Of a stretch of DNA of 38,707 bases, positions 1,814 to 36,121 are shown one piece after another. The translations under genes and the position numbers were made by a program. The notes under the pieces were generated by a model that saw nothing but the letters and a program-made list of their open reading frames with translations, had not been told where the DNA came from and searched no databases. The DNA is from a virus (Duplodnaviria > Heunggongvirae > Uroviricota > Caudoviricetes), in IMG/VR virus record IMGVR_UViG_2529292997_000008, positions 1 through 38,707 of that record. One strand, written 5' to 3'. How positions within the stretch are numbered: position 1 is the stretch's first letter; the number at the start of each line of letters is the position of its first letter.

Positions 1814-2932
1814 TTACAAAATGGAATATTCAGGGTAATAAACAAAGCGCCCAATTTCCCCATGATCCGGGCTGTAAATAATCACCGCTGCCAGACGCCG
1901 CGACCGCCAGCCGCCATTAGTTGAATATGCGTCTTTGCCAGCTAATGTGCCGTGGTGCTCAACTATTCCAAGTGATGTTTCAACAACTGATTGATGGTGC
2001 AGATGTCCAGTGTGAGCGTAAACAGCCACAGACCTTCCGAAATCCTCCCGCCAGTCAGCTACGCAAGCAGACAATAAATTTTCCGGCTTTTTGATAGTGT
2101 GCCCGTGGTGGTAAGCAAGGAATGTTTTGCCATACTGTGTGTGGTGGACAATGGCAGGTGACACGTCAACAGTCACGCGCGGCTCATCTTCGTAAAAAGC
2201 CGCAAGCGCAGCACGTAGCCAGATCATACCTGATTGGTCGTGATTACCGGATAATACCTGGATCTCGACATCCTTATGATTTAGTAACATCTTCCCGACC
2301 GCACGCCGGACCGACCGGATCGCCACATAAACCAGTTTTGCGTAGCGTGAATCACAATCTAAAACGTGATTACTTGATGGCGTCACTGGTAACAGGCCGT
2401 CAGTGTGAAGCACATCACCGCCGAGAAGTAAAACAGCTTTTTCAGACATCGGAGCAGCGCCAACAGCGTAGTCAAAGAAGTCATTCAACACGCGCTCAGC
2501 GATCCCAGTATCGTAGCTCTCACCGCATTCAGCTTTATGAGCAAGCGCCCCGATATGCAGATCAAACACCGGATAAAGTGCCAGGCTTTTTTGAAAATCA
2601 ATTTCAGGCACTGGCACAGCCTCCGCGCGTGGTATTTCATCAGTGAAAGCGTCGCGGGCCGCTTCCATTAGCTGTTCCATTTCTTCGCGGTCACGGGCTG
2701 TTTTAATCCAGCGCATGATAACATTGCCGTTCTTATCGACTAGCAACGACTCGCCATTGACGCCAAAACCAGGAGCGCGGCGTGTTGATAATAAACCACG
2801 TTTCGCCAGTTTTGCGCCCAGGCGCTCGACATTGCGTTTTGACATGCCATATTTTTCAGCAATCTGCTTGTACGTTAAACCGTTGTTATATTCAGCGATC
2901 AATTGCTCATCGCTGATTTTTCTTTGCGACAT
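1814..2932 (-). CDS. HTH domain protein fused to calcineurin-like metallophosphoesterase
   Basis: 372 aa; N-terminal HTH (LTYKQIAEKYGMSKRNVERL); metallophosphatase motifs DLH, GGD, GNHD, HHGH, GHLHH in canonical order; GAGGA RBS. Confidence 0.6.
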   Translation of the reverse strand: MSQRKISDEQLIAEYNNGLTYKQIAEKYGMSKRNVERLGAKLAKRGLLSTRRAPGFGVNGESLLVDKNGNVIMRWIKTARDREEMEQLMEAARDAFTDEIPRAEAVPVPEIDFQKSLALYPVFDLHIGALAHKAECGESYDTGIAERVLNDFFDYAVGAAPMSEKAVLLLGGDVLHTDGLLPVTPSSNHVLDCDSRYAKLVYVAIRSVRRAVGKMLLNHKDVEIQVLSGNHDQSGMIWLRAALAAFYEDEPRVTVDVSPAIVHHTQYGKTFLAYHHGHTIKKPENLLSACVADWREDFGRSVAVYAHTGHLHHQSVVETSLGIVEHHGTLAGKDAYSTNGGWRSRRLAAVIIYSPDHGEIGRFVYYPEYSIL

Positions 2933-2966
2933 AATGTTAATTCCTCAGGTTTACATTTTGTATACA

Positions 2967-4022
2967 TCAGGATATAGCACAACGAAAAAACTTGCACCCC
3001 AAATAATCCTCAATGCGTTTTTGTCTTATCGCATCGCTTTTTGCTTGCCGTTTGTGATGTGATTCATCAATTTCTACAGCAATATTATTCACAAGATCGT
3101 AGCCATCAATAAAATACTTGTTGCCAGCAACATTAACAGGATATTGCCTTATTAATTTAACTCCTTTTAGTTTTTCGTACATAGTTAATCCAGCATGTTC
3201 ATAACGCTTCCTAATCATATTTTTACAATTATAACTCATTTCTGATAATTTCTCGTCACATTCCCTTTTTATTTCCTCAATTACATTCTTGTCGCTTTTT
3301 AATTCAATAAAGTTTTCTATGTCGTTATAATTACCGCATTCAAAATTATTACTAAGACCTTTATTTTGACCCCATGTATGATACTTTTCCGCTATCTTAT
3401 CGCTAATATATCTTTCATATCCATAATTTGTTTTAACTGTAAAATATTCAATATTTAAATCAATGGTAAACTCATCATTATTAAGATGTTCATTTAAAAA
3501 CGTATCTGGATCTGCAATATCGCTTGAATGAAACAACCTTACCCATAGTTTTTCTATTGATACTCCGCGAGTAACGAACAACCATTTTTTATACTTTTCA
3601 GCATCTTCCTTTGACACATACACAGAGCATCGCCCGGGAGTATCACTAGTTTCAACATAGTTGTTACACCATAAAACATAATTATAAGCATAAGGACTAT
3701 CTTTTCTGGTATTATTTGAATATTTATTAAACACATCTTGTAAATCAACTAATCCACAAGATTCAATAACTGGCTTAACCCAATTTTCATTATATTCATA
3801 ATGTCTATATTTACCAGGTGTAACGAATCTAATAAACGTTATAGGTGTGATATACACATCATCACCATCAATAATAAAATCCTTGTATTCCTCAAATCCG
3901 TAAAGATCAGAGTATTTAACAAATGATTTAAGCCTATCGATTTCAAGTTCAGAAACAAGATTATTAACAGATAGTAATTGCGTGTCCTTACAATTTAGTT
4001 TCACATGATAAGTGGCAATCAT
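2967..4022 (-). CDS. low-GC accessory protein with C-terminal DUF559/Vsr-like (PD-(D/E)xK) endonuclease-type motif
   Basis: Track ORF 2967..4103 trimmed to ATG at 4022 preceded by AAGAGG; 351 aa; markedly AT-rich versus flanks; C-terminus FIDGYDLVNNIAVEIDESHH..DAIRQKRIEDYLGCKFFR fits pattern aIE.DG..HH...D..R...L...G..v.R. Confidence 0.6.
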   Translation of the reverse strand: MIATYHVKLNCKDTQLLSVNNLVSELEIDRLKSFVKYSDLYGFEEYKDFIIDGDDVYITPITFIRFVTPGKYRHYEYNENWVKPVIESCGLVDLQDVFNKYSNNTRKDSPYAYNYVLWCNNYVETSDTPGRCSVYVSKEDAEKYKKWLFVTRGVSIEKLWVRLFHSSDIADPDTFLNEHLNNDEFTIDLNIEYFTVKTNYGYERYISDKIAEKYHTWGQNKGLSNNFECGNYNDIENFIELKSDKNVIEEIKRECDEKLSEMSYNCKNMIRKRYEHAGLTMYEKLKGVKLIRQYPVNVAGNKYFIDGYDLVNNIAVEIDESHHKRQAKSDAIRQKRIEDYLGCKFFRCAIS

Positions 4023-4175
4023 ATGTACCTCTTTTCTTAATTTTATATATAACGCCTCAGACGTGCTACAACGCAAAAATCCCACCGCGTAACCCGTTTG
4101 CACAGGTTGCAGTGTCTTATTGCGTCAGAGGCGCTCTCAGGTGGCTAATTTTTGATTTACAGGCTGGTATGAAGG

Positions 4176-4277
4176 TTATGGATTGATAAGAAGGAACAAA
4201 CCGCCGAACAAAGCGACGTTAACAGCGATTGCAGCAGCGATGGCAAAGGCCAGGGCGAAAACGTGTTTACCGTCCAT
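4176..4277 (-). CDS. small hydrophobic peptide (33 aa, single predicted TM helix)
   Basis: MDGKHVFALAFAIAAAIAVNVALFGGLFLLINP; ATG with GAGAGGA RBS; not in track (<60 aa). Confidence 0.3.
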   Translation of the reverse strand: MDGKHVFALAFAIAAAIAVNVALFGGLFLLINP

Positions 4278-4410
4278 TTTAAAATCCTCTCTAAAACGCT
4301 CTATAACGAGCTAAATAGCTAAAGATATGCAATCGTAGCACCATGCGTGTTTTAGCTCGCTGGTGAGGTTGTTTTGTGGGTAATTTTGGATTTTTGCGAA
4401 TCGTGGTTGG

Positions 4411-5463
4411 TCAAAGAGCGCCTGCGCGTGTGTCGCGTAGCGTTTTTGGTTTAAGCAGGAAATCAAGTGTCGCTGTGAAGCCATTGCCGAAGTAAAAATC
4501 TGAAGCCGTGTTTTTGAATGTTTCGAAGTAGGCGACAAAGCCGTTAATGCTTTTGTCTTTCAGGTAGTCAGTGAACGCATAGATCTTGCGTTCAAGATCC
4601 CGATCCAGTTCGACAGGTGGTAACAGGCCGTCAAACGTGCTGTTAAATGCTTCCACCACGTCGGCAGCGTTTGCAGTGGCTGACAGTTTGCGCCATTGTT
4701 CAGCATCAGTCAGATACCCATCAAATTTAGTTACCCGGCAAATATTGATAGGCTTAGGTGTTCCACCACGGCTACGCCATTGCGTTAAAGCCCACTCAAT
4801 CACTAATGTGATCTCATCCTCCGTATACGCTTTACGTGTTTTTGTTTCTGTCAGTAGTTCGATGAATGGCTTCGCATCACGACATTTGCATCCTGCCTTG
4901 TCGTTGTAGAAGGCCAGGCAACGCAACGCCGCTTCGTTTACGCCATCATGATTGACCATTTTTTGTTCATTTTCGACAATACACGAAGTGTATATATCTT
5001 TTTCTCTTTCTTCTTCTACTTCTAATTCTAATTCATGACCCTTTCCTGACCCGGTCATGACCCTATCATGACCTTTTTGTGTTGGATTGATTAACTTTTC
5101 TAATTTTAATTGCTCCTTAGCTGTGTTTATGGCGGCCCTGTACGCGCTTTTAGAAGTCATTGATTGGTCAAGCCTTTTCAATAACTTTAAACAAGTTATG
5201 TGGCCTTGAGAACATTCAAACAAACCAATTTCGATGAAGTATTTCATCATTTCTTCTATACGTTTTTCAGTCGATCCGACGTTTCGCGCAATGATTCTCG
5301 CGTCATGTCGTAGGTCAAAAGTCAGATTGTGCTGATCTACGTCATAAGTTATTAGTTCGAGGCAATACCAATAAAGCCCGTACCCTTCCAGGCCATAATC
5401 TAACAAAACGTTTTGAAGTTTTTCATCGCGGTTCGCATCGCTGTCATGCTTAAACCACTTCAT
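4411..5463 (-). CDS. replication initiation protein, phage replisome-organizer N-terminal type
   Basis: 350 aa; N-terminus MKWFKHDSDANRDEKLQNVLLDYGLEGYGLYWYCLELI resembles replisome organizer N-domain; acidic linker; GGAGGG RBS; start overlaps upstream stop. Confidence 0.65.
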   Translation of the reverse strand: MKWFKHDSDANRDEKLQNVLLDYGLEGYGLYWYCLELITYDVDQHNLTFDLRHDARIIARNVGSTEKRIEEMMKYFIEIGLFECSQGHITCLKLLKRLDQSMTSKSAYRAAINTAKEQLKLEKLINPTQKGHDRVMTGSGKGHELELEVEEEREKDIYTSCIVENEQKMVNHDGVNEAALRCLAFYNDKAGCKCRDAKPFIELLTETKTRKAYTEDEITLVIEWALTQWRSRGGTPKPINICRVTKFDGYLTDAEQWRKLSATANAADVVEAFNSTFDGLLPPVELDRDLERKIYAFTDYLKDKSINGFVAYFETFKNTASDFYFGNGFTATLDFLLKPKTLRDTRAGAL

Positions 5464-5466
5464 AGA

Positions 5467-5724
5467 TCATCCCTCCGGCAACATCACTACATAGACATCA
5501 CTGAATGCATCAAGACGACAAACAAATCCTTTATCCATTAACGCGGCGAAGGCATCATGTACCGTATGAACAGGAAGTTCACACATTGCGGCTACTTCTT
5601 TGCGTGATGCATCATGTACCCGTCCTTTGTTATCTGCCTTTTCAGCCAGAGCCATTAAGACAAGTTTTTGAATCGGGCTATTAAGTTTTACGTTCCATGC
5701 TTTACTAATCATGTTTATACTCAT
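5467..5724 (-). CDS. small winged-helix DNA-binding protein at Cro/CII position
   Basis: 85 aa from ATG at 5724 with AGGAGA RBS (the 111-aa track version needs a TTG start); first gene of leftward operon divergent from cI. Confidence 0.5.
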   Translation of the reverse strand: MSINMISKAWNVKLNSPIQKLVLMALAEKADNKGRVHDASRKEVAAMCELPVHTVHDAFAALMDKGFVCRLDAFSDVYVVMLPEG

Positions 5725-5833
5725 CGCATTTTCTCCTATGGTTAGAGTGAACGCGCGGGCGGGCATCCCATTAGCATTAGATAGCAGTGACTGACCGCTC
5801 AACAGATCCCGCCGTTGCGTGATATTTGTTTTT

Positions 5834-5867
5834 CGCTTCGCAGCGACACCGGATTTTTAAAGAGCAT
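5834..5867 (-). promoter_or_regulatory. candidate nut-like site (boxA TGCTCTTTAAAAA plus boxB-like hairpin CGCU-GCGA-AGCG) in leftward leader
   Basis: Read on minus strand; boxA 11-12/13 to rrn/lambda boxA consensus, followed 8 nt later by 4-bp stem with GNRA-type loop. Confidence 0.35.
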
Positions 5868-6029
5868 AAGGTAAGTGCCTTTTTGTGCCTTCCGTTATCT
5901 TTTTCCTTGCGTCTTTGCAAGTATGGCCTTACCTTGTCTGCAAGTTTACAAAATGGAATTTTAAGATCAAGGCTTAAAATACACGTTTTGTGACTTGCAT
6001 CAAACTTTTTGAGGTTATAGGGTAGCGAC

Positions 6030-6677
6030 ATGAAAACAAAATGGTATGACTTAGCAAAGCAGCTCATGCGGGCGCAGGGCATGAGCCAGGATTCGCTCGC
6101 GGATCGTATGGGGATAACTAAAGGCGGCCTGTCACACTGGCTGAACGGTCGCCGAGAGCCAAATCTTGAAGATATTGCGCGGATTATGCGCGAGCTTGGT
6201 CGTCGGCAGTTTACTGTTACACATGATGGCATGGTCATTGATGATTCTGTTTCTAATACACTTCAGGCCGTGCCGCCGCGTGATTTAGGTAGTTACCCGG
6301 TTATTGACTGGAAGGACACAGTAAACAATATGGATGACGCAAGGCGTTCAGCATTACGACACGTTACGACTAGCGTTATTTGTTCAGATGACAGTTACTG
6401 GCTGGTTGCCAAAGGTGAATCAATGAACGCGCCGCAGGGGTTGAGCATCCCGGCGGGGACGATGATACTTGTGGACCCGCACGCGCCAGCTATTGACGGC
6501 AAACTGGTTATAGCCCAGCTTGAGGAAGGGCAGATACCGACGTTTAAACAGTTGATTATTGATGGAGGTCAAAGGCTTTTACGTTCGCTCAATCCGCTGT
6601 ATCCGCCAATCCCTATGAATCCAGAATCAAAAATTATAGGCGTGGTGGTTGATGCGAAGATCGTAAACCTGCCATAA
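6030..6677 (+). CDS. CI-type prophage repressor (HTH-XRE N-domain, LexA-like S24 peptidase C-domain)
   Basis: 215 aa; HTH QDSLADRMGITKGGLSHWLNGRR; C-domain with GESM serine motif and downstream Lys-containing segment; GAGG RBS. Confidence 0.85.
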   Translation: MKTKWYDLAKQLMRAQGMSQDSLADRMGITKGGLSHWLNGRREPNLEDIARIMRELGRRQFTVTHDGMVIDDSVSNTLQAVPPRDLGSYPVIDWKDTVNNMDDARRSALRHVTTSVICSDDSYWLVAKGESMNAPQGLSIPAGTMILVDPHAPAIDGKLVIAQLEEGQIPTFKQLIIDGGQRLLRSLNPLYPPIPMNPESKIIGVVVDAKIVNLP

Positions 6678-6684
6678 ACATTAG

Positions 6685-6708
6685 CCGCCGAATGGCGGCT
6701 TTTCTTTG
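6685..6708 (+). terminator. rho-independent terminator after repressor gene
   Basis: GCCGCC-GAAT-GGCGGC hairpin followed by TTTTCTTTG. Confidence 0.7.
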
Positions 6709-6800
6709 CCTGGGAAACACCAAAACGTAAACAGAAAACGTTATTTATTATTTAAATATCAATGGCATATAAAATATTTTAAAAAAGTATACAAAATGGA

Positions 6801-6829
6801 TTGACTCGATGTTTTACGGGGCGTATATT
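6801..6829 (+). promoter_or_regulatory. sigma70-like promoter (PL-analogue) driving rightward early operon
   Basis: TTGACT-17 nt-TATATT; TACAAAATGGA motif immediately upstream (6790-6800). Confidence 0.5.
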
Positions 6830-7082
6830 GCGAGTCAAAGGAAGGGCGCAGGTAACAAAAGCAACTTCCTGGCACTTTAAAAATCAGGCTTAACACCTTG
6901 TCAACCGTGGAGTAACTCCCCGATGGGGGACCGAAAGCGGCACTGATAACAAGGCGCATGGGGTGTTTAAAGCGTTACATCCCCCACGAAACCGCACGCA
7001 AGGCGACGAGTCAGCTTGCTTGGAGTGAGCAAGGTCACGCCGGGAACGGCGATGATTGCGGGATTAGTTGAAAGATGTTAAG

Positions 7083-7120
7083 CCGCTCATTAACAATCTG
7101 GTCAGCCGCTGGAAGTGCGG
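7083..7120 (+). promoter_or_regulatory. candidate nutL-like site (boxA CGCTCATTAACAA, boxB-like hairpin GCCGC-UGGAAGU-GCGGC)
   Basis: boxA 11/13 to consensus, 11-nt spacer, 5-bp stem hairpin; about 60 nt upstream of N-like ORF. Confidence 0.45.
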
Positions 7121-7177
7121 CAATTAACGAAGATGATTTTTTATTAAGTATCATCAAGGATATACGGAGATCAGATT

Positions 7178-7468
7178 ATGAGCGTTACAATTATATATGG
7201 TAAATGTGATAGCAAAATGAATGCCAGGGAACGCAGAAGGATAAAAAGAGAAAACGAAAGAAAATCATCACCTGCAATCAATAAAACAGACAATGTGGAT
7301 AAAGCTATTCGATTTGCAAACGAGGAAAGATGCAAACCAAATAGCATTAAAGAACGTCGCAAAGGATCAGTAAAATGGTATACGGAAAATGAAAGCGGCA
7401 GCTACTACCACGCAACGCAACCACGCCATTTAGGGGAAAAACCCCTGGATAAAGTCCGCTACCATTAA
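7178..7468 (+). CDS. N-like transcription antiterminator candidate (arginine-rich motif protein)
   Basis: 96 aa, basic; N-proximal ARM NARERRRIKRENERK; first gene after PL-like promoter and nut-like site. Confidence 0.5.
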   Translation: MSVTIIYGKCDSKMNARERRRIKRENERKSSPAINKTDNVDKAIRFANEERCKPNSIKERRKGSVKWYTENESGSYYHATQPRHLGEKPLDKVRYH

Positions 7469-7498
7469 TACAAAATGTAAACATCCGGAGATGACATT

Positions 7499-7621
7499 AT
7501 GGTTATTCAGGCGCTTCAATTCAAACTGGCAGTAGCGGAAATGCTTCACGATGCCGAAATGTGGAGCGCCGCGAATAAAGCCTTATACATAGTGTTAACA
7601 GCACGGGAGATTAAATGGTGA
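7499..7621 (+). CDS. small ORF (40 aa)
   Basis: ATG with GGAG RBS, preceded by conserved 15-mer ATACAAAATGTAAAC cassette; overlaps erf start. Confidence 0.35.
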   Translation: MVIQALQFKLAVAEMLHDAEMWSAANKALYIVLTAREIKW

Positions 7622-8259
7622 AAACAGAGTTACATAAAAAGCTATGGACGATTCAGCAAACGCTGAACGCGCCGAAAAATCAGCGTAATAATTTTGGTGG
7701 ATATAATTACAGGTCGGCGGAGGATATTTTAGAGGCGGTTAAACCACTGCTTCAAAATATCACGCTGACTGTTAGTGATGAAATTGTCCTGATCGGCAAT
7801 CGCTATTATGTGAAAGCAACGGCGACGCTAAGCGACGGTGAAGACGTAATAGCGGTAACTGCTTATGCCAGGGAGGAAGAAAACAAGAAGGGTATGGACG
7901 CCAGCCAGCTAACAGGAGCAACATCAAGTTACGCGCGTAAATATGCTTTGAACGGTTTATTCTGTATAGATGATGCTCGCGATCCTGATACTGATGCTTA
8001 CGCGAAGCAGACAGGCCAGCAGCCGCGACAACAGAAAAACCCACCAAAACAACAACCGCAGCAGAAGAAAGCGCCGCCAAATCCTGATGAAGTATTAGCA
8101 CGTTTCTGTGATGCAGCAGCGAAAGCGCAGGACGCTAACAAGCTGCGTGAAATATTTGGCAAATGCTGGAAATTACTACCGGAAGGATCGGAACATCGAA
8201 TCAAGGCAAAAGATGTTTATGACATCCGGGTCGCAGAGCTTAACGGGGAGATGGGTTAA
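7615..8259 (+). CDS. erf: ERF-family single-strand annealing recombinase
   Basis: 214 aa; N-terminal ERF-like core, Q/P-rich linker, C-terminal domain; GGGAGA RBS. Confidence 0.8.
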   Translation: MVKTELHKKLWTIQQTLNAPKNQRNNFGGYNYRSAEDILEAVKPLLQNITLTVSDEIVLIGNRYYVKATATLSDGEDVIAVTAYAREEENKKGMDASQLTGATSSYARKYALNGLFCIDDARDPDTDAYAKQTGQQPRQQKNPPKQQPQQKKAPPNPDEVLARFCDAAAKAQDANKLREIFGKCWKLLPEGSEHRIKAKDVYDIRVAELNGEMG

Positions 8260-8678: not shown

Positions 8679-8694
8679 AATCAATGTGTTAGCG

Positions 8695-9322: not shown

Positions 9323-9330
9323 GGCCAATT

Positions 9331-10239: not shown

Positions 10240-10860
10240 ATGAACGACATCAAAACAGCTTACTCTCTCGGTAATGAAGGTATGTTGATCACTCGCTATA
10301 CAGATGATGCAAACTTTCACGAAGTGGAAATTAAAGATTATCACGAAGTATTGAAAGATATGGAAGCTGGCGCGTATGACGCTGATTTGAATCTGGCGCT
10401 ACAGGTTGTTGATATTGTGATGGGTGCGTCAATCCGCGATTACGTGTCTTTAAGTATGGAAGAAAAAACATCGGTAGCGCGTTATGTATTCTCTCTTACT
10501 TTTGTGAAGCGCATGGAGGAAGAATTCGGACGCGTACCAGTGCCGGAAGAGGTTGATCCGCTCGCGTTCGGAAGTGCTGTCATTTTCCCGTTGAACAAGG
10601 AACAGCTTGGTAGTGTTTCACTGCATTCTATGCGCGTCCTGATGAAAAATATCTTTGAGGTTAAGATGTTGCAGAAATGCATTGAGGAAGGCCACAAAGA
10701 GGAAGAAGTAAAAGCGCTCATGCCATTGTTTTACGGTGAAATGGTTGGCAATGATATGCGTGCAAATGATTTCGGCGTACAGGCGGCTATCGCTGTGCTT
10801 AATTACGCACGGAAAAACGCACAGCCGACGCCTGAACAGGGAAAACGTGTACTGCATTAA
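10240..10860 (+). CDS. hypothetical protein (206 aa)
   Basis: Long ORF with RBS; no motif recognised. Confidence 0.6.
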   Translation: MNDIKTAYSLGNEGMLITRYTDDANFHEVEIKDYHEVLKDMEAGAYDADLNLALQVVDIVMGASIRDYVSLSMEEKTSVARYVFSLTFVKRMEEEFGRVPVPEEVDPLAFGSAVIFPLNKEQLGSVSLHSMRVLMKNIFEVKMLQKCIEEGHKEEEVKALMPLFYGEMVGNDMRANDFGVQAAIAVLNYARKNAQPTPEQGKRVLH

Positions 10861-10959
10861 CCGAGTAATTCCGATCACATAAATATACATTTTGTATTGT
10901 GATTGTATATCCGTTTTGTAAGCCGAAATCAAAAGGTTTACGGTGCGGAGGAAGCAAAA

Positions 10960-14418: not shown

Positions 14419-14440
14419 TGTTTACAAAATGGCGTCATTG

Positions 14441-14456
14441 TGTGATGCGGATCACA
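14441..14456. promoter_or_regulatory. CRP-type palindrome TGTGATGCGGATCACA
   Basis: Perfect TGTGA-N6-TCACA, lying between inverted TACAAAATGG motif copies in the 160-bp intergenic region. Confidence 0.4.
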
Positions 14457-14578
14457 TAATGGCGCTTTATTGTTTGTTCGCATGTATCCGTTTTGTATAC
14501 TTCAAACAAACAAAATGCTCTTTAAAAATCCGGTAACGCTGAAATGCGTAAAAATCACCTGAAAAAGGAGAGAGCATT

Positions 14579-15779: not shown

Positions 15780-15958
15780 AAAACGAAGTTAAAGATCTGC
15801 AAATAGATATTCAGCGCGATGAGCATGATTTAGCTACAGTCCGACAAATCCGGGCTTTTCATATGCGCGAATTGCTTGCATTGAAAGAGCTTGAGAAAAA
15901 GTTAGTCCAGTCTATTTCTGATCGTAAACAACTTATTGCTCGTTACGGGGGGAAATAA
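15776..15958 (+). CDS. hypothetical protein
   Basis: 60 aa; overlapping start/stop. Confidence 0.5.
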   Translation: MKNEVKDLQIDIQRDEHDLATVRQIRAFHMRELLALKELEKKLVQSISDRKQLIARYGGK

Positions 15959-16680
15959 TGAATTTAGAATCCATTCTGAAATTCCACTTTCCCAAATCAC
16001 CGCGATTATCAGACGAAAGCCGGGGCACATCCCCGGATGCGCTTAATACGACTGATGCGCTAACCGCTGCAGGTATGGCGCAATCGCGCGTAGAGCTTGG
16101 TTACAGCGCTTTTTTAGGGAAGATGGAACTATCGCAAGCCGAAAAACACAGGGCCGTAGTTTTGCTTACAGAGCGTTTAAGAGCTATGGCAAAAGATTAC
16201 GAATACGTCATGGAGCTGGACGAGGACAAACGCAATGATCTTATTATTCTTGTTGCCGTTTTCGCGTTTCGGGATTACTGCCAGAGTGCCGCGACAGAAA
16301 AAACTTGTATGGATTGCGGCGGATATAAATTTACGTTTGACGACTACGGAGAAAAACACCTTTGCAAAAAATGCAAGGGGCATGGAAAAGTTCGCAATCA
16401 TTGTAAACGATGCAAAGGGCGCGGCGAGATACCGGATAAAGCAGCCAGTGAAGCAGCGGAAATGCCAGTGTTCAAAACGTGCCAGCATTGCGGCGGGCGC
16501 GGGTACTCGCGTTTCCCTGTAGATCTTGTCCGGCGTGCGGTTAATCAGCTTGTATTTCCGGTAAGCCGATCAACATGGTGGAAAAAATACCGGGTTTTCT
16601 ATGAAGACGCCATCGCTGAATTGTTCAAGGAAGAGGCGCGGGCTGATAACGAAATTAAACGAGTTACGCGGGGTGAATGA
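15958..16680 (+). CDS. Cys-rich protein with four CxxCxGxG repeats; possible Q-type late antiterminator
   Basis: 240 aa; CMDCGGYK, CKKCKGHGK, CKRCKGRGE, CQHCGGRGY; sits after ninG-rusA where Q normally lies; function uncertain. Confidence 0.4.
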   Translation: MNLESILKFHFPKSPRLSDESRGTSPDALNTTDALTAAGMAQSRVELGYSAFLGKMELSQAEKHRAVVLLTERLRAMAKDYEYVMELDEDKRNDLIILVAVFAFRDYCQSAATEKTCMDCGGYKFTFDDYGEKHLCKKCKGHGKVRNHCKRCKGRGEIPDKAASEAAEMPVFKTCQHCGGRGYSRFPVDLVRRAVNQLVFPVSRSTWWKKYRVFYEDAIAELFKEEARADNEIKRVTRGE

Positions 16681-19716: not shown

Positions 19717-19732
19717 TGTGATCTGTATCACA
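19717..19732. promoter_or_regulatory. CRP-type palindrome TGTGATCTGTATCACA
   Basis: Perfect TGTGA-N6-TCACA, flanked by AAA and A, close to the idealised CRP site; intergenic. Confidence 0.45.
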
Positions 19733-19735: not shown

Positions 19736-19776
19736 TATACGAAATGGCATTGTTTCGACAGTGCCATTTTGTTATA
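19736..19776 (+). promoter_or_regulatory. inverted TACAAAATGG-type motif pair enclosing a sigma70-like promoter
   Basis: TATACGAAATGG-16 nt-CCATTTTGTTATA; TTGTTT-17-TATATA promoter inside; same architecture as 36082-36121. Confidence 0.4.
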
Positions 19777-29082: not shown

Positions 29083-29087
29083 AAATC

Positions 29088-30377: not shown

Positions 30378-30391
30378 CTGGAGGGAATACA

Positions 30392-30820
30392 ATGTCTCGT
30401 TTTCGTCGTGTAAATATTGATGGTAAATCCATTACCGAAACCTACACTGCTAAGGTCGCAGTAAAACCAGGTGAACTGGTAAAACTGGACGGAGGTAAGT
30501 TTGCAAAAGCAACCAGTGCTGATGTCGGTGCAGCTCAGTTGTACATCGTCAACCCGGCATTCCACGAAGGCAAAACCATTACTGATGCAATCGCTGCAAA
30601 TGAAACTGTTGTTGCTGATTATGTGGAACAGGGCCGAGAGTTTGCTCTCCTTGTTCCTGCAGCCGCTTATGTTAAGGGTGCAGCTATTGCTCTCGCAGCT
30701 GACGGGGTGAAACTGTTTGTTGCGCCAAGTGAACAGGCAGCGCCAGATCCGATCATCGCATACTGCCAGGAAGACGTAACCCTGGAAGCGGAAGATTTTA
30801 TCCGCGTTCGCGTGGCTTAA
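30392..30820 (+). CDS. small head protein (decoration/cement-like, positional)
   Basis: 142 aa, Ala/Val-rich, immediately upstream of capsid gene; GGAGGGAA RBS. Confidence 0.4.
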   Translation: MSRFRRVNIDGKSITETYTAKVAVKPGELVKLDGGKFAKATSADVGAAQLYIVNPAFHEGKTITDAIAANETVVADYVEQGREFALLVPAAAYVKGAAIALAADGVKLFVAPSEQAAPDPIIAYCQEDVTLEAEDFIRVRVA

Positions 30821-30837
30821 TTTAAAAGGGGAATAAC

Positions 30838-31902
30838 ATGTACTTTACTAAAGAAAACCTTGTCGCCAACTCCCGGATGCAGAGCCATTGGAAAGAACTG
30901 TGGGCGCAACGCAATATCTTCAACGAGCAGCACAACGCCATGATTGCAGCAAATCAGGCAAATATGACCGCTGAAATGTTGACCTGTAACGCCGTCGGCG
31001 GCTTCGCAAAAGAATTCTGGAAAGAAATCGATAACCAAATCATTGAACTGAACACCGAAGAGGTCGGTATCGAGATCGTAAACGACCTGATGGGTGTACA
31101 GACCGTATTACCAATCGGTAAAACGCTGAAAATGTACAACGTATCCGGCGACATTAACGATGAGGTCGTAATGTCTATGGATGGTCAAGCGCCACACAGC
31201 TTTGATCACACCGAATACGGCAGCGATGGCGACCCGATCCCGATGTTCGCAGCGGGTTACGGTGTTAACTGGCGTTTAGCTCAGGGCTTAAATACTGTAG
31301 GTATCGACCTTGCATTAGACAGCCAGCGCCTTAAACTGAAAAAATTCAACAAAGCACGCGTCCAGTTCTACCTGAATGGTAACGATCGCATCGTGGTTGA
31401 TGATCATAAAGCAATGGGTATTAAAAACCACAAAAACACCCAGCAACTTAAACTGAAAACTGTTGCTAAAATCGACCTTACCACTGCGGCTTTCGATAAG
31501 ATTATTGAATTCTTTACCACTGGTGAGTTCGGGAAACTGGCCCGCGCCAACTTCGTAGCTAAATACGATGTAATGTGGGTATCGCCAGAAATCATGGCTA
31601 ACCTGGCACGCCCACACATCGTTAATGGCGCAATTGTTGGTAGTGTGCTGGATGTTATCAAGCCGTTTGTCCCGGTTGGTGATATTCGCCAGACCTATGC
31701 GCTGACTGGCAACGAATTTATCGCTTATCAGCGTAGCCGCAGCGTCATCACCCCGCTGATTGGCATGACCACTGGCGTAGTTCCGTTACCGCGCATGATG
31801 CCGACTGATAACTACAACTTCCGCATCATGTCCGCTGAGGGTCTGCAAATCACCCGTGACATGGAAGGTCGTTCAGGAGTGGTCTACGGCAGCAATACCT
31901 GA
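30838..31902 (+). CDS. major capsid protein (positional call)
   Basis: 354 aa; strong RBS; followed by a strong terminator, typical of the highest-expressed head gene. Confidence 0.65.
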   Translation: MYFTKENLVANSRMQSHWKELWAQRNIFNEQHNAMIAANQANMTAEMLTCNAVGGFAKEFWKEIDNQIIELNTEEVGIEIVNDLMGVQTVLPIGKTLKMYNVSGDINDEVVMSMDGQAPHSFDHTEYGSDGDPIPMFAAGYGVNWRLAQGLNTVGIDLALDSQRLKLKKFNKARVQFYLNGNDRIVVDDHKAMGIKNHKNTQQLKLKTVAKIDLTTAAFDKIIEFFTTGEFGKLARANFVAKYDVMWVSPEIMANLARPHIVNGAIVGSVLDVIKPFVPVGDIRQTYALTGNEFIAYQRSRSVITPLIGMTTGVVPLPRMMPTDNYNFRIMSAEGLQITRDMEGRSGVVYGSNT

Positions 31903-31921
31903 TTGATATGTTTCTGTAGCT

Positions 31922-31950
31922 CCCCGGCGCAATGCCGGGGATTTTTTTTG
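31922..31950 (+). terminator. rho-independent terminator after capsid gene
   Basis: CCCCGGC-GCAAT-GCCGGGG hairpin plus T8; near-identical hairpin recurs at 38511. Confidence 0.7.
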
Positions 31951-31967
31951 TATGTGGAGAAAACAAA

Positions 31968-32354
31968 ATGGTTACCACACAACAGGCGCGGGAATATCTC
32001 GAAAGCCAGGGGATTGAAATACCAGACGTGGTTTTATCTTTGCTGGTGGAGCAGGCAAATAGCGTTAATGAATGCCTTGATGCCAATTATCCGTCCTCCA
32101 CTGCAACATTGATTCAGCTTTATCTCATTGGCCTGTTAGGACTCAGCCAGGCTGATAAATACGTTTCCTCGCAGACTGGTCCGAACGGTGCAAGCCAGTC
32201 TTACCGCTATGTCGATTTTAATAAGCGATGGAAGGCGGCCTATTCGTTGCTTTACTCACTGGACAAACACCATTGTACAGCCGAACTAATTCCACCAGAT
32301 CCAGAAAACACCGCGCACGCCGGGCTGTGGATTGGTAAGAGCAGGAGGATGTGA
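31968..32354 (+). CDS. head-tail connector/adaptor protein (positional)
   Basis: Track ORF trimmed to ATG at 31968. Confidence 0.45.
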   Translation: MVTTQQAREYLESQGIEIPDVVLSLLVEQANSVNECLDANYPSSTATLIQLYLIGLLGLSQADKYVSSQTGPNGASQSYRYVDFNKRWKAAYSLLYSLDKHHCTAELIPPDPENTAHAGLWIGKSRRM

Positions 32355-32542
32355 CAATGTGGAACGACCTGACATTACCAAATCCAGTATTGCCGAAACC
32401 ATTTACCCGCGTGTGGGTTAAAACGGATAGCGGACGCCAGGTGGCGGCCTACCTCAATGATGCTGGCTTATGGGTAATTCTTTGCCCGCGCGTGGCGAAA
32501 ACTCATCCAAAGGTCATTAGCTGGAGTTACGGCTATGAGTAA
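32351..32542 (+). CDS. hypothetical structural protein
   Basis: 63 aa; ATGA overlap. Confidence 0.45.
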   Translation: MTMWNDLTLPNPVLPKPFTRVWVKTDSGRQVAAYLNDAGLWVILCPRVAKTHPKVISWSYGYE

Positions 32543-32903
32543 GATTGCGCGATTCAGTTACAAGGCATTAGCCACCATCTACCCCGTAACGCATGACGAC
32601 TGGACAAACGCCGACGTATACGGCGCACCATACCTGATTAACTGCGCATGGGAGCGCACCGACGGCACTGCAACAGACACAAACGGTAATGAGGTTAGCA
32701 ATACAATAACCGTATTTACCGAACTGCTTCATAATATGCAGCCAGTGCAGCGCCCGAAAAACGGCTGGATGATTGCCACTGGCGACACCACTAATATTTC
32801 CGACCCGCTGGTGGCTGGGGCCAACGTTATTACCGGGATCGTTGAATGGGATATGAGCATGTTTAACGACACGCCGGATTATAAGATCGTGACAGGGGGT
32901 TAA
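32535..32903 (+). CDS. head-tail joining protein (positional)
   Basis: 122 aa; overlapping start/stop. Confidence 0.45.
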   Translation: MSKIARFSYKALATIYPVTHDDWTNADVYGAPYLINCAWERTDGTATDTNGNEVSNTITVFTELLHNMQPVQRPKNGWMIATGDTTNISDPLVAGANVITGIVEWDMSMFNDTPDYKIVTGG

Positions 32904-32905
32904 TC

Positions 32906-33370
32906 ATGCCTATCAAGGGGGTTAAACGCGTCCGTGAGAGATTAAAGCAGGAACTAAAGGAAATCACCGATAAAAAGACGCACGAAGTTTTATGGCGCGT
33001 CGGTATGCTGGCTGGTGGCTTCGCGGCAAACATGACACCAGTTGATACGGGTTTTTTAATTAACAGCCAATTTCAATATATAGGTAACACGGCGGACGGT
33101 ATGCAATTACGCCTGGGATATACGGCCCGCTACGCTGAATGGGTGCACAATATGCCGGGTACATTAAAAGGCCAGCCGCGCGAAGATTTCGGCAAAACGA
33201 ATAACCTTTCAGATTTCGGACCGAAACAGGTAATTAGTTTTGGTGGTGGTACTGGAAAGGGTAATTATTGGGATCCAAATGCGGAGCCTGGATTCTTGCG
33301 TAAGGCATTCGAAGATCCTAACCACGCCGATGATATTTATAAAGAAATTGTAGAAGGTTACAAAGTATGA
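32906..33370 (+). CDS. head-tail joining / tail completion protein (positional)
   Basis: 154 aa track ORF. Confidence 0.5.
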   Translation: MPIKGVKRVRERLKQELKEITDKKTHEVLWRVGMLAGGFAANMTPVDTGFLINSQFQYIGNTADGMQLRLGYTARYAEWVHNMPGTLKGQPREDFGKTNNLSDFGPKQVISFGGGTGKGNYWDPNAEPGFLRKAFEDPNHADDIYKEIVEGYKV

Positions 33371-33753
33371 AACGCAGCGAAGTTTACGACGAAATAAGGG
33401 ATTGGATTCAATCCCACGGATACGATGAAGGCTATATTTTGCAGGCCCGTTTCTGGAATGAGCGAAGTAATTCGAATAATGACAGATACATCGTGATCCA
33501 GCAAAACGGCGGCGCGGCTGGTGAGGAAGCAATAACCCGTGATTATTTCCGCATCCTGGTTATTTCAGCGCGTAATGATGCAAATATCAGTGAGGTGGAA
33601 GACCTTGCCGATGCCATCCGTCAAAGTATGTTAACAGAATATAAAACTGATAAAATTACACACATGAAGCCAGTTGGCGCTATTCCTGCAATACAGACAA
33701 GAGAAGGGCGCTTTATTTTTACCGTAGCCTTTCAAACCATCATATCAAGATAA
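33367..33753 (+). CDS. tail completion protein (positional)
   Basis: 128 aa; ATGA overlap. Confidence 0.5.
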   Translation: MKRSEVYDEIRDWIQSHGYDEGYILQARFWNERSNSNNDRYIVIQQNGGAAGEEAITRDYFRILVISARNDANISEVEDLADAIRQSMLTEYKTDKITHMKPVGAIPAIQTREGRFIFTVAFQTIISR

Positions 33754-33766
33754 GAGGTAAATTAAC

Positions 33767-34243
33767 ATGTCTCAGACTTGCGAAAAAGGCACGTTTACAG
33801 GCCGTGACGTTGCTGTATTCTTCGCTATCGCTTGTCCAAATGCGAAGCCGGAAGCTGAAGCGTACAAAGCGTTAGGCATGATGCGTGGTAAAACACTTTC
33901 CGTTGAATGGGAAACCGCTGACGCCACCGCCGATAAATCAGCCGATTACACGAAAGAATCAATGGTTACTTACAAATCCGTTTCTTTCTCCGGCGACGGT
34001 GTGTCCCGCACTGAAGAAATCCATAATCAGAAAGCGCTGAAACGCCACGTAATTACGCCAGGTGAAACCACCGGATCACAACCTTATGTATGGCTGAAGA
34101 TCGTTTCTCCTGTAGACGTAACTGAAGGCCCATTCCTTTGCACTTCCTTTAAAGAAGAAGATCCGCATGATGATGTTTCCACCTGGTCTATTGAGTGCGA
34201 AAGCGCTGGCAAGGTAACGGTAGGCGACGTTCCGCCAGCATAA
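33767..34243 (+). CDS. major tail (tube) protein candidate
   Basis: 158 aa; followed by terminator hairpin; upstream of chaperone-position gene and tape measure. Confidence 0.5.
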   Translation: MSQTCEKGTFTGRDVAVFFAIACPNAKPEAEAYKALGMMRGKTLSVEWETADATADKSADYTKESMVTYKSVSFSGDGVSRTEEIHNQKALKRHVITPGETTGSQPYVWLKIVSPVDVTEGPFLCTSFKEEDPHDDVSTWSIECESAGKVTVGDVPPA

Positions 34244-34261
34244 CAGCCAATATTAACAATC

Positions 34262-34286
34262 GGGGCCATTTGGCCCCTTTTCTTTT
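34262..34286 (+). terminator. rho-independent terminator after major tail gene
   Basis: GGGGCC-ATTT-GGCCCC hairpin followed by TTTTCTTTT. Confidence 0.65.
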
Positions 34287-34298
34287 AAGGTGAATACT

Positions 34299-34997
34299 AT
34301 GATCCATGTTCGTACAGGACAATTTGCTGCCGTGGTGAACGGTAAGCGCTATGAGTTTAATCCTTGCTTTGCTGCGATGGCTAAAATCGGCAACGATAGT
34401 GAGCTTGTCGAATATTTCGCACTTATCCACGGCGGCAAATATCCATCACGATTGCCAGCAGATCCAGACCTACGCAATCGCATTCTGGCGCGGTGTTATG
34501 GTGAAATAGTTCAGACATCAATGCACATCCTGAAATGTTGCTCAGACGACGAAATAGGCCCGTTATTGGGCGAATGCTGGTTTACTCCTTCGGGTAAGTT
34601 AAAGTTAAAGCCCGGATTAATGCCGATCGAGGATATCATCACGCTTGCGCAGCACTGCATGTACCACGGTCTTATTGGTGATGGCCCGGAAGAAGAGTCC
34701 GGGGAAATTCCGGAAGGGGAATATAAGCCGACTTTTAACGTCCTTGAATTCGTCTATTCTGCCGTTGCTCACCTGGGCTTGTCAGAATCGGAAGCATGGA
34801 ATATGACAATGACCGGATATAGGGCCGCTGTACGCGCTAAAACGCCGCCAGACGAAAGAAACGAGAAAAGCAAGCCAAACATTCACATAAATAAACGTGC
34901 TTATGACGAGCAAATGGAGGCCGCTAAAAAGGCACTAGAAAGAATGAAAAATCGTGAGCAAGAAAAGCCCGGTAGATCCGGGCGTTTTGCTAATTGA
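34299..34997 (+). CDS. tail assembly chaperone-position protein
   Basis: Trimmed to ATG after AAGGTGA (track start is GTG); last + gene before tape measure. Confidence 0.4.
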   Translation: MIHVRTGQFAAVVNGKRYEFNPCFAAMAKIGNDSELVEYFALIHGGKYPSRLPADPDLRNRILARCYGEIVQTSMHILKCCSDDEIGPLLGECWFTPSGKLKLKPGLMPIEDIITLAQHCMYHGLIGDGPEEESGEIPEGEYKPTFNVLEFVYSAVAHLGLSESEAWNMTMTGYRAAVRAKTPPDERNEKSKPNIHINKRAYDEQMEAAKKALERMKNREQEKPGRSGRFAN

Positions 34998-35364
34998 AAT
35001 CTTTAATTGCTGTACCTGGTGAACTGTGTGTGATTGTATTGTATACAGACTTTGCCTTACTGCGATCTTTCCATTCTTTTAGGATGCAGTTATCAAACTT
35101 TGCGATAACCCTTGAAGGGGATAATTCTTCAACATCCATGTAAGTAAATCCTATCGTGCTGGTTACTGAATACCATACGTGATAACTATAATTACCGTCA
35201 TGCTCGATTCTTTGTGGTTCCCCCATTATTTTATTCACTTGCTCACAAGTCATTCCAACTTGCAAATTTTTATCAGCTAACTTAACGAAATCAGTTGATC
35301 TTGCGCACCCTGTAAGAGCTAAAGCCATAACACCAATGAGAACCGCTTTGATTATTTTTTTCAT
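34990..35364 (-). CDS. moron lipoprotein with BamE/SmpA-OmlA-like motif
   Basis: 124 aa; signal peptide plus lipobox LTGC; GMTCEQVNKIMGEP resembles BamE motif; opposite strand inside tail module. Confidence 0.7.
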   Translation of the reverse strand: MKKIIKAVLIGVMALALTGCARSTDFVKLADKNLQVGMTCEQVNKIMGEPQRIEHDGNYSYHVWYSVTSTIGFTYMDVEELSPSRVIAKFDNCILKEWKDRSKAKSVYNTITHSSPGTAIKDFN

Positions 35365-35374
35365 GATTTACCCC

Positions 35375-36034
35375 TTAATTCCAGTTGCAAGCGTTTTTCA
35401 CTTTGTCGATGTGGTTATAAAGACCATCAATGTTAAACACTGCTTTCTCAATGTCGCCAGCTTCCGGCACTACTTCAATGATGAATTGTTTTTCGTTAAC
35501 CAGTTTTTTAATCATTGGGATGGCTTTTTTGCCGTCCCATAATCCAAGAGCTTTATAATTAGTTGACCGCCACCACTCAGTAGCTACAGCTTTGTGAACG
35601 CCGATCCGGTAGTTAATATAAGTAGTGTCCCCGGCGTCAGTTACATGGTGTGACCATGCTACGAACATTTTTGTTTTATTACCCTGGCAAGCGATTGTTA
35701 ATACCGGTTTATTCTTATCCTGTGCCTTCAGTGTCGGGAAAGCATCAAGACTTCCGCTGAATTGTTCTGCTTTCACAAAAAGGAATACGTTTTTTGCGTC
35801 CTGCATATCATCTTTTCTTTCAACTACAAGCCACTGTTTACCAGCATTTTCTTTTTCTAACTGTGCATCGTATGCGGCTTGTTTTGCTTGTTGTTCTGCA
35901 AGCCATTTAGCATTTTTCTCTGCTAATGCTTGTTGCTCTTGATTGGTCACTATAGGCGCTTTTTCATTATCCTCATTGCAACCAACCAGACCCAATACCG
36001 CCGCAATCATTGCCACTTTTGCTAACCGTTTCAT
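35375..36034 (-). CDS. moron lipoprotein (219 aa)
   Basis: Signal peptide plus lipobox LVGC; Gln/Ala/Lys-rich linker; GGTGGG RBS; own promoter at 36082-36121. Confidence 0.7.
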   Translation of the reverse strand: MKRLAKVAMIAAVLGLVGCNEDNEKAPIVTNQEQQALAEKNAKWLAEQQAKQAAYDAQLEKENAGKQWLVVERKDDMQDAKNVFLFVKAEQFSGSLDAFPTLKAQDKNKPVLTIACQGNKTKMFVAWSHHVTDAGDTTYINYRIGVHKAVATEWWRSTNYKALGLWDGKKAIPMIKKLVNEKQFIIEVVPEAGDIEKAVFNIDGLYNHIDKVKNACNWN

Positions 36035-36081
36035 AACCCACCACGCTAACTTGATTTACTGACCATTCCCTTTAGCTTCCT

Positions 36082-36121
36082 TATACAAAATGGAGTCGTT
36101 GAAGTAAAGCCATTTTGTATA
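36082..36121. promoter_or_regulatory. 40-bp inverted TACAAAATGG motif pair with divergent promoters
   Basis: TATACAAAATGG-16 nt-CCATTTTGTATA; minus-strand TTTACT-17-TATAAG inside; plus-strand TGTATAAAAT extended -10-like element. Confidence 0.5.

Follow-up and report, generated by a model that had tools for sequence, protein, structure and literature searches.

A repeated pseudo-palindrome as the probable operator of the cI-like repressor in a prophage of the mEpimmI group

The window, which is the whole stretch of 38,707 nt that was analysed, is a phage of the mEp021/mEpimmI group, and the motif TACAAAATGG that recurs along it is probably the conserved core of the sites to which the prophage's own repressor (encoded at 6030-6677) binds. 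The motif is enriched, biased towards intergenic DNA, conserved in position among relatives, set in a common architecture and found together with one repressor family. The repressor operators of this group are not described in the 2025 paper on the group (PMC11893012), which does report that expressed Rep021 blocks infection by all six of the mEpimmI phages tested and that there is no UV induction. The mEpimmI phages have been reported to be as frequent as lambdoid phages in human gut E. coli.

The motif forms the core of an 11-mer pseudo-palindrome, TACA-NNN-TG(T/G)A, and a TACAAAATGG-type sequence is present at all 13 of the coordinates given in the sequence-only reading of this DNA. In the window, TACAAAAYGK occurs 11 times against 0.53 ± 0.78 in shuffled sequences (maximum of 4 among 300 shuffles). 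When one mismatch is allowed, TACAAAATGG has 17 matches against 3.94 ± 2.26 in dinucleotide shuffles, none of which (0 of 100) reaches 17. An unbiased k-mer scan returned TACAAAATG as the top over-represented 9-mer of the window (10 observed, 0.55 expected) and CATTTTGTAT as the top 10-mer. The intergenic count was done in the prophage of E. coli M15, the closest PGAP-annotated relative, where 13 of 19 matches (at most one mismatch) are non-coding and non-coding sequence makes up 14.9% of the DNA (binomial P = 2e-7); this bias bears out the earlier statement that the copies lie almost only between genes. Most sites combine one good half-site (TACA) with another that is systematically weaker (TGG instead of TGT), and a single operon can hold both orientations, as at 7469 (+) and 10886/10910 (-). 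Three sites of the window are perfect palindromes, and the most symmetric ones stand elsewhere than at the main early promoters. When the sites of the window were used to make a position-weight matrix for scanning, the result was 13 strong sites in the window, 12 in the first 50 kb of mEp021 and 14 in MagusPhagus, so that each mEpimmI genome carries 12-14 strong, positionally conserved sites. They are kept at every position in 42 related loci, and 11 of the 13 in the window are more than 400 nt away from the repressor gene.

Weaker copies beyond the 13 were found at 5982-5992, 6815-6825 and possibly 6035-6045, all in the immunity region, where the candidate operators flank the repressor gene as follows (no strand is assigned to the operators):
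6030-6677, + strand: repressor gene Rep (215 aa; HTH_3 and Peptidase_S24, lambda-cI-like), the proposed motif binder
5947-5957: putative operator TACAAAATGGA; it overlaps the -10 hexamer of the early promoter predicted to read leftward
5982-5992: weaker, inverted partner operator CACGTTTTGTG, its centre 35 bp from that of the 5947 site
6035-6045: possible third operator AACAAAATGGT, within repressor codons 2-6; uncertain
6790-6800: putative operator O_A TACAAAATGGA, which abuts the -35 hexamer of the early promoter that reads rightward
6815-6825: putative operator O_B TACGGGGCGTA, which overlaps the -10 hexamer of the promoter at 6801-6829 and is centred 25 bp from O_A

The product of 6030-6677 matches the Pfam domains HTH_3 (1.5e-12) and Peptidase_S24 (5.8e-19), as well as the lambda cI structure 3bdn over residues 15-208 (E 1.4e-20). 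It has the features of a lambda-type, cI/LexA-like repressor, namely an N-terminal HTH, a C-terminal S24 domain, flanking candidate operators and a spacing of ~2.3 helical turns between them, and it is 91-100% identical across 40 related loci. The predicted leftward promoter is TTGATC-16-TAAACT on the minus strand (5970 to 5943), with TTGATC or TTGACC as the -35 in relatives. The partner site at 5982-5992, which is kept in 22 unique relatives, some of which read ACATTTTGTG, lies 2 nt upstream of TTGCAT (5995-6000), the -35 of a predicted repressor promoter that would yield a leaderless transcript. The site at 6035-6045 is uncertain because Lys-Trp codons by themselves produce AAATGG. Downstream of the gene, the pair at 6790-6800 and 6815-6825 lies over TTGACT-17-TATATT (6801-6829), which is the best sigma-70 match within an intergenic gap; as had been noted from the sequence, the 6790 copy directly abuts the -35 of this PL-like promoter. 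Among relatives the motif and both hexamers are invariant here, and the 17-nt spacer is variable.

The repressor is 40-51% identical to those of Klebsiella, Erwinia, Enterobacter, ST64T/L and Vibrio phages, and the TACA-NNN-TG core also flanks the homologous repressor gene in five unrelated phages (Klebsiella ST340-VIM1phi10.1, Salmonella ST64T, Enterobacter ENT1, Erwinia Midgardsormr38 and Vibrio P2). In the 36-kb Klebsiella phage, whose repressor is 51% identical, TACAWAAYGK occurs four times, never more than about 130 nt from the repressor gene, and the layout of PL matches the O_A/O_B arrangement of the window. The other four, with repressors that are 40-45% identical and have the HTH signature T.G..(S/G)HWL(N/G) in common, each carry two or three TACA-NNN-TGTA sequences in the interval from cro to the repressor gene, plus a pair downstream of the latter. 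The downstream (OL-side) pairs are spaced 25 bp from centre to centre in all five phages. The closest parallel is drawn with c2 of phage L/ST64T, likewise an HTH_3 and S24 protein (44% identity over 98% of the length; HTH ...GITKGGLSHWLNGRREP in the window, ...GKTQGAIGHWLNGRREP in ST64T), whose gene also has operator sets on either side. In ST64T, two copies of TACAAAATGTA lie downstream of c2, and TACGAAATGTA, TACAATATGTG and TACGAGATGTA upstream, with the same TACA-NNN-TGTA core; its PL reads TACATTTTGTA-TTGACG-17-TATTGT, the -10 being covered by another operator, similarly to 6801-6829. Since the core travels with homologous repressors, with the same spacing and the same promoter layout, we assign the sites to the 6030-6677 repressor; an operator set of the phage repressor was one of the options previously raised, and the comparative evidence from these five phages favours it, with binding itself as what we infer from sequence.

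The two systems also differ. Genome-wide scans with the same matrix gave only 2-3 strong sites around the repressor gene in the Klebsiella phage, ENT1 and ST64T, with no dispersed sites of comparable score in these three genomes; L/ST64T thus has 2-3 strong sites (about 5-6 operators in total) against the 12-14 of mEpimmI, which are mostly kilobases from the repressor. In the window, TGG replaces TGT in one half of most sites, and the repressor has no Ala-Gly cleavage motif where the Klebsiella homologue carries one. A heteroimmune relative in which changes of motif and repressor could be compared was looked for within the mEpimmI group and none was found.

The L/ST64T type has a Cro, whereas no Cro homologue of the repressor family was found in the window, in the first 50 kb of mEp021 or in the 43-kb M15 prophage stretch. 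Searches by tblastn with Cro proteins of the family match only the HTH of the repressor, which is the sole protein with this type of HTH in the window or in mEp021, and the gene in the position of cro is unrelated and variable. This bears on whether another phage regulator binds the sites, instead of the repressor or alongside it, the candidates being the 5467-5724 protein, a winged-helix regulator whose gene follows that of the helicase in relatives, or a Cro analogue that has escaped recognition. Cro uses the operators of the repressor in lambdoid phages, the Cro proteins of the outgroups have a repressor-like HTH, and a lytic-phase factor acting at many promoters would be biologically sensible. 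Across 42 relatives, all of which retain the sites, the 5467-5724 protein is anything from 100% to 29% identical, or is missing, and its role as the binder is not supported. It gave no match in a Pfam search and has no homology to the Cro of the family; its counterpart in mEp021 resembles the N-terminus of the adjacent replication protein. The outgroup phages, moreover, have only the repressor in common with the window and not the candidate proteins. We therefore regard another regulator, which the sequence-only reading had also proposed, as unlikely.

Away from the immunity region, the following candidate sites were located, again without an assigned strand:
10886-10896 and 10910-10920: two direct operators, 24 bp apart
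14423-14433: operator at the 5' base of the t4 terminator hairpin (14431-14466)
14487-14497: operator TCCGTTTTGTA, overlapping the -10 of the predicted promoter TTGTTC-16-TATACT (14474-14501)
19738-19748 and 19763-19773: operator pair with centres 25 bp apart, around a predicted promoter
36084-36094 and 36109-36119: operator pair with centres 25 bp apart, covering overlapping divergent promoters

The pairs of the window are spaced 25, 25, 25 and 24 bp from centre to centre, and five cassettes built as O_A-(-35)-O_B-TATAWW can be aligned in register. The 10886/10910 pair encloses the minus-strand promoter-like sequence TATACA-16-TATATT, which would be antisense to the early operon. The predicted promoter at 14474-14501 is about 15 nt upstream of the nutR2 boxA (14517-14530). 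At 14423, t4 is an intrinsic terminator with a 16-bp stem (14431-14466; dG -26.6 kcal/mol, z = -6), and the CRP-type palindrome noted here (14441-14456) does have perfect TGTGA-N6-TCACA halves, although the sequence is the apex of the t4 stem. A second perfect CRP-type site lies at 19717-19732, at about -61 of a predicted promoter. The promoter of the 19738-19773 pair is predicted to serve a small gene starting at about 19812. The promoters under 36084-36119 belong to the tape-measure gene (36162, +) and to a minus-strand, VasI-like cargo gene (35375-36034). Both operators of this last pair are kept in 33 unique relatives, in which the spacer and the cargo-side flank vary; the operators change only at positions 8 (T/C) and 10 (G/T), the same ones that vary between sites.

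The 40-bp architecture reported at 19736-19776 and 36082-36121 (a 12-bp inverted repeat with a 16-bp spacer) is as described, and the perfect 12-bp arms at 36082-36121 could pair across their 16-nt spacer, which would make the inverted pairs RNA or DNA hairpins, such as processing sites, terminators or cruciforms. In 23 of the 33 unique relatives, however, the arms are non-complementary at the variable positions and there are no compensatory changes; in addition, the 10886/10910 pair is direct rather than inverted, and single copies are common. The probability of hairpins is accordingly close to negligible.

Three further sites stand within operons next to ribosome-binding sites, which they and their partners flank (no strand is assigned):
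1815-1825: putative operator; the start codon of the helicase lies 25 nt downstream of it
2952-2962: fully symmetric putative operator TACAAAATGTA; gene 1814-2932 starts 25 nt downstream of it
7469-7479: fully symmetric putative operator, directly after the stop of the N-like gene (7178-7468)

Each has a partner that covers an ATG: the weak AACATAATGGT at 1791-1801 that of the helicase, AACATTATGTC at 2928-2938 that of gene 1814-2932, and GACATTATGGT at 7493-7503 the next start codon, 25 nt downstream of the 7469 site. The position of the 1815 site is kept in relatives, and nearly all related loci have the one at 7469. Inspection of the sequence found no promoter hexamers at these three sites, where a start site would land within or past the ribosome-binding site. 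The earlier description of the motif as promoter-associated thus holds for about two thirds of the sites, and not for 1815, 2952 and 7469, which are away from promoters.

It could be argued that the motif is a promoter element read by the host RNA polymerase with no regulator of its own, either a UP-like A-tract (-46 to -37) or an extension of the -10. The centre of the motif is an A-tract, and in the five cassettes it lies at a fixed 23-25 nt upstream of TATAWW, at about -46 to -37, which is the proximal UP subsite. This explanation does not account for the three sites that have no hexamers, and the position of 14423 also misfits. The outer TAC and TG are conserved like the A-tract, which is unexpected in a UP element, the site is pseudo-palindromic and present in both orientations, and the five other phages confine the sequence to the flanks of the homologous repressor gene. 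The extended -10/UP-like design that had been suggested is therefore improbable in our estimate.

The ~33 nt that the three RBS-adjacent cassettes have in common extend past the operator, so these sites may be copies of one junction sequence that were not independently selected. The 19738-19773 pair is located at a mosaic breakpoint, the homology to other prophages breaking at 19718, 19731 or 19812. Several sites at such breakpoints, together with the common ~33 nt and a cargo gene to the left of 36084 that differs among relatives with retention of the control region, could indicate that the repeats are mainly short junctions promoting the exchange of modules by recombination, with protein binding as a secondary property. 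At 10-12 bp they are very short for homologous exchange, and this would leave unexplained the relation to the -35 and -10, the 24-25 bp pairing and the repressor-only placement in other phages; we hold it to be very improbable.

The operator reading leads to the following model. The repressor, of the phage L/ST64T c2 type, would bind each 11-15 bp pseudo-palindrome, (A/T)(A/T)TACA-NNN-TG(T/G)(A/C), as a dimer, and sites 24-25 bp apart might be bound cooperatively, as in lambda OL and OR. At the early promoters (6801-6829 and 5943-5970), bound operators would exclude RNA polymerase. The promoter/operator cassette and single operators appear to have spread genome-wide in the mEpimmI group, and therefore the repressor would shut off secondary promoters directly, the presumed targets being those that precede nutR2, the ~19812 small gene, the tape-measure gene and cargo genes on the minus strand. 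At the three gene junctions, repressor on either side of the ribosome-binding site would probably be a roadblock to read-through transcription. With about a dozen conserved, scattered copies, it may directly silence many promoters and gene junctions.

A more far-reaching and tentative possibility is that the mEpimmI repressor acts as a genome-wide silencer, with roadblock pairs, that controls secondary early promoters and cargo genes and is more than a switch at two loci. The antirepressor operon in the late region of mEp021 and mEp515 could then also be under the repressor, many sites in the lysogen could be bridged into a multi-loop repressed structure, and a stoperator-like strategy would have arisen independently in an enterobacterial, lambda-cI-type system lacking Cro. 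The stoperators of the mycobacteriophage L5 repressor gp71, reportedly described by Brown et al. in EMBO J in 1997, resemble the window in that many repressor sites occupy short intergenic gaps in early and late operons, some without a promoter, and by analogy blocking of read-through transcription in the lysogen is plausible for both. In L5, however, a monomeric, non-S24 repressor binds asymmetric 13-mers that all point the same way relative to transcription, whereas the sites of the window are pseudo-palindromic, face either way, frequently form pairs 24-25 bp apart and go with a cI-like repressor. Phage P1 has dispersed C1 operators, and the phiC31 repressor binds conserved inverted repeats (CIRs). 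Both resemble what we propose in having one immunity repressor with many scattered operators and transcription units, although the repressor families, operator sequences and genome types of P1 (a plasmid prophage) and phiC31 (an actinophage) are unrelated to those of the window.

For the mEpimmI repressor there is now a specific operator sequence, together with about 13 candidate sites mapped along the window. If the dispersed sites are bound, the group would exemplify a genome-wide regulon under a cI-type repressor in enterobacterial phages. This bears on the working of a switch that lacks a Cro homologue and, apparently, self-cleavage of the repressor, on the silence of the prophage, and on whether the cargo genes of the tail region switch on only after induction. 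Cargo genes are usually viewed as expressed in the lysogen, and a repressor acting at their promoters conflicts with that view.

The window shares 87-93% identity with the coliphages mEp021, mEp515, mEp010 and MagusPhagus, as well as with some 30 prophages of E. coli. These four phages and related E. coli prophages constitute the "mEpimmI" group, in which a single repressor, Rep021, blocked infection by all six phages tested, the N-like protein Gp17 is active at three nut sites, a Q-like protein is present and UV induction is reported to be lacking (PMC11893012). Neither operators nor the motif considered here, a repeated 11-12 bp element, were identified in that study. The features of the window needed for the analysis are as follows.

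Leftward replication operon: the 5467-5724 protein, a replication protein and a helicase (374-1795)
5852-5865, minus strand: nutL, boxA-like sequence
6030-6677, plus strand: repressor gene, HTH_3 and Peptidase_S24 domains
6872: boxA-like site
Rightward operon: N-like gene first (7178-7468), then recombination genes, Q (15958-16680), lysis, head and tail genes, and the tape-measure gene (36162)
14517: nutR2, boxA-like sequence
35375-36034, minus strand: cargo gene for a protein with a VasI-like domain (type VI secretion-associated; Pfam 1.2e-15), inserted after the tail assembly genes and before the tape-measure gene

All 13 copies of the motif listed in the sequence-only reading were found in the window, and a genome-wide search with the 10-mer TACAAAATGG (at most 1 mismatch) confirmed its enrichment, with 17 hits where dinucleotide shuffles gave 3.9 ± 2.3. 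For the degenerate form TACAAAAYGK there are 11 occurrences (0.53 ± 0.78 expected), and a motif-free k-mer scan with a second-order background returned TACAAAATG (10 observed, 0.55 expected) and CATTTTGTAT as the top 9-mer and 10-mer. Maximal-order Markov statistics were dropped as uninformative, since sub-words of the motif are themselves enriched. The intergenic placement also holds: in the E. coli M15 prophage, the closest annotated relative (94% identical), 13 of 19 hits fall within the 14.9% of the DNA that is non-coding (P = 2e-7). As to what the motif is, a reading of the reversed motif as a -10 region (CCATTTTG-TAnAnT) was rejected, the final T of the hexamer being present in just 3 of 13 sites. 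The motif does not fit the consensus sequences of the host factors Fis, IHF, TyrR, OmpR, CpxR or LexA either.

Homologues of the repressor at 40-51% identity are found in unrelated phages. Klebsiella phage ST340-VIM1phi10.1 has the exact 10-mer 48 nt before the start of its repressor gene and the reverse-complement copy about 100 nt beyond the stop, and all four copies of TACAWAAYGK in the whole 36-kb genome flank the repressor gene. The repressors of Salmonella ST64T (phage L-type c2), Erwinia Midgardsormr38, Enterobacter ENT1 and Vibrio P2 have in common the HTH signature ...T.G..(S/G)HWL(N/G)..., and each of these phages has TACA-NNN-TGTA two or three times in the interval from cro to the repressor gene, plus a pair downstream of the latter. 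Since such copies flank homologous repressor genes, the motif is taken to be the core of an 11-mer pseudo-palindrome centred at the sixth base. Perfect palindromes (TACAAAATGTA) are present at 2952, 7469 and 10886, and most of the remaining window sites have TGG replacing TGT in one half. The relaxed form TACA-NNN-TGTA (at most 1 mismatch) is weakly enriched in the window (23 against 13.9 ± 3.6), so that the AAA centre belongs to the signal in this phage, and sites with other centres are not callable from sequence alone. Scored with a position-weight matrix made from the window's own sites, the genomes of the Klebsiella phage, ENT1 and ST64T have 2-3 strong sites each, all of them grouped around the repressor gene. 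The same matrix gives 13 strong sites for the window, 12 for the first 50 kb of mEp021 and 14 for MagusPhagus.

The motif is thus probably the operator of the prophage repressor, as the first of the earlier proposals had it, and this is favoured by the same core flanking homologous repressor genes in the outgroup phages. The other regulator suggested, the 5467-5724 protein at the Cro position, is not supported as the binder: in 42 related loci, all of which keep the sites at the same offsets, its identity falls from 100% to as low as 29%, and it can be missing altogether. The outgroup Cro proteins are related to one another and have a repressor-like HTH, and the 5467-5724 protein is unrelated to them. 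When they were used as tblastn queries against the window, mEp021 and the M15 prophage, the sole match was the repressor's own HTH, and the mEpimmI group seems to lack a Cro homologue. The repressor is therefore the only shared protein able to explain the shared motif. Of the 42 loci centred on the N-like gene, 40 cover the repressor region, and every one of these has the same repressor (91-100%). MagusPhagus, which looked heteroimmune in a first search, also has this repressor, at the start of its record. The 5467-5724 gene product (minus strand) has no Pfam match; in mEp021, its counterpart is similar to the N-terminus of the replication protein encoded next to it. Of the S24 motifs, Ser (GESM) and Lys (TFKQL) are present in the repressor, and Ala-Gly is missing at the position where the Klebsiella homologue has SAG, in agreement with the reported lack of UV induction (PMC11893012).

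The arrangement of sites around promoters is similar in the different phages. In PL of ST64T, TACATTTTGTA-TTGACG-17 nt-TATTGT, another operator covers the -10, at a centre-to-centre distance of 25 bp, which is also the spacing of the pairs in the Klebsiella, Erwinia, ENT1 and Vibrio phages. In the window, the strongest intergenic sigma-70 match (TTGACT-17-TATATT, 6801-6829) has the 6790 site directly abutting its -35 and TACGGGGCGTA (6815-6825) over its -10, exactly 25 bp further on. Relatives differ in the spacer of this promoter but not in the motif or in either hexamer, and the inverted repeat TTGACTCG/CGAGTCAA around the promoter is not kept. The pairs 19738/19763 and 36084/36109 are 25 bp apart and 10886/10910 24 bp, and five such regions, among them one of mEp021, can be aligned in register, with the order operator, -35, operator, TATAWW. 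Given this register, the 12-bp inverted repeats with a 16-nt spacer, noticed earlier at 19736-19776 and 36082-36121 and indeed present there, are better read as two predicted operators for overlapping promoters. An IMG/VR scan for the 16-nt-spaced inverted pair returned mEp021-like contigs only, plus a few chance matches at other spacings.

The 5947 operator overlaps the -10 of a predicted leftward promoter, TTGATC-16-TAAACT (-35 TTGATC or TTGACC in relatives), and a weaker partner (5982-5992) sits just upstream of TTGCAT-17-TAGGGT, a promoter that would start at the repressor ATG and give a leaderless transcript, as at lambda PRM. The 14487 site overlaps the TATACT of a promoter predicted shortly before nutR2, and the 14423 site is at the foot of terminator t4; the CRP-type palindrome previously placed at 14423-14499 turns out to lie inside the t4 stem (14431-14466, -26.6 kcal/mol, z = -6). 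A perfect CRP consensus, TGTGATCTGTATCACA, is found at 19717-19732, 5 nt upstream of the 19738 operator and at about -61 of the predicted start site (class I position), with about 0.04 expected by chance in the window. At 10882-10909, a minus-strand promoter-like TATACA-16-TATATT flanked by both operators points leftwards, antisense to the early gene 10240-10860; relatives have no minus-strand gene annotated there, and the site may give rise to a repressor-controlled antisense RNA. Two boxA-like sequences, GCACTTTAAAAATC at 6872 and GCTCATTAACAATC at 7085, lie in the interval from the early promoter to the N-like gene (6840-7100); in relatives whose leader is shorter by about 213 nt, only the second is present. 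Exact copies of AATCCGGTAA number 5 (0.14 expected), at 994, 13450, 14407, 14527 and 37339: that at 14527 is part of nutR2, one inverted copy lies just upstream of the 14423 operator, and the rest are in coding DNA.

At 36084-36119, divergent promoters are predicted, one toward the tape-measure gene and one toward the minus-strand cargo gene, and relatives have different genes at the cargo position behind the same operator-bearing control region. The stretch preceding the tape-measure gene was compared in 33 unique versions, which differ in the cargo-side flank and in the 16-nt spacer and keep TATACAAAA(T/C)G(G/T) and (C/A)CATTTTGTATA. The arms no longer pair in 23 of the 33 versions and no change is compensating, which speaks against a hairpin and for two predicted protein sites where Y is tolerated at position 8 and K at 10. 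GATCACA, which includes a GATC Dam site, is also invariant in the 33 relatives, unlike the remaining half of the would-be CRP site. TGTGATC/GATCACA recurs beside operator sites at 36135-36141 (TGTGATC on the minus strand), 10873-10879 and 14450-14456.

Sites 1815, 2952 and 7469 and the homologous mEp021 site 7723 lie between co-directional genes, where no -35/-10 hexamers fit. All four have the operator centred exactly 25 nt before the A of the following start codon, a weaker operator-like (A/G)ACAT(T/A)ATG(G/T)N with the ATG inside it centred 24 bp away, and the Shine-Dalgarno sequence between the two. Most simply, such sites would form a roadblock at gene starts that depends on the repressor; alternatively, the four could be copies of one junction sequence. 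Roles in both repression and roadblock are plausible for the scattered sites.

The system is of the lambdoid cI/c2 repressor-operator kind, in particular the phage L/ST64T c2 type, from which it differs in its genome-wide scatter of operators and in its apparent lack of a Cro homologue. Dispersed operator sets are known in the stoperators of mycobacteriophage L5, the C1 operators of P1 and the CIRs of phiC31. The dispersal in the window resembles these, although the proteins are unrelated and the window sites break the single-orientation rule of the L5 stoperators. Searching full texts for the operator sequence brought up no phage paper, and neither the operator assignment for mEpimmI nor the genome-wide dispersal is described in the open literature searched. 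Operator-like sites are also seen elsewhere in the group, at 43920 of mEp021, upstream of an operon holding an antirepressor gene, and in MagusPhagus (PP925836.1, 12784-12794), where a perfect TACAAAATGTA lies about 100 nt upstream of a lipoprotein gene; lipoproteins of this kind mediate superinfection exclusion (PMC11893012).
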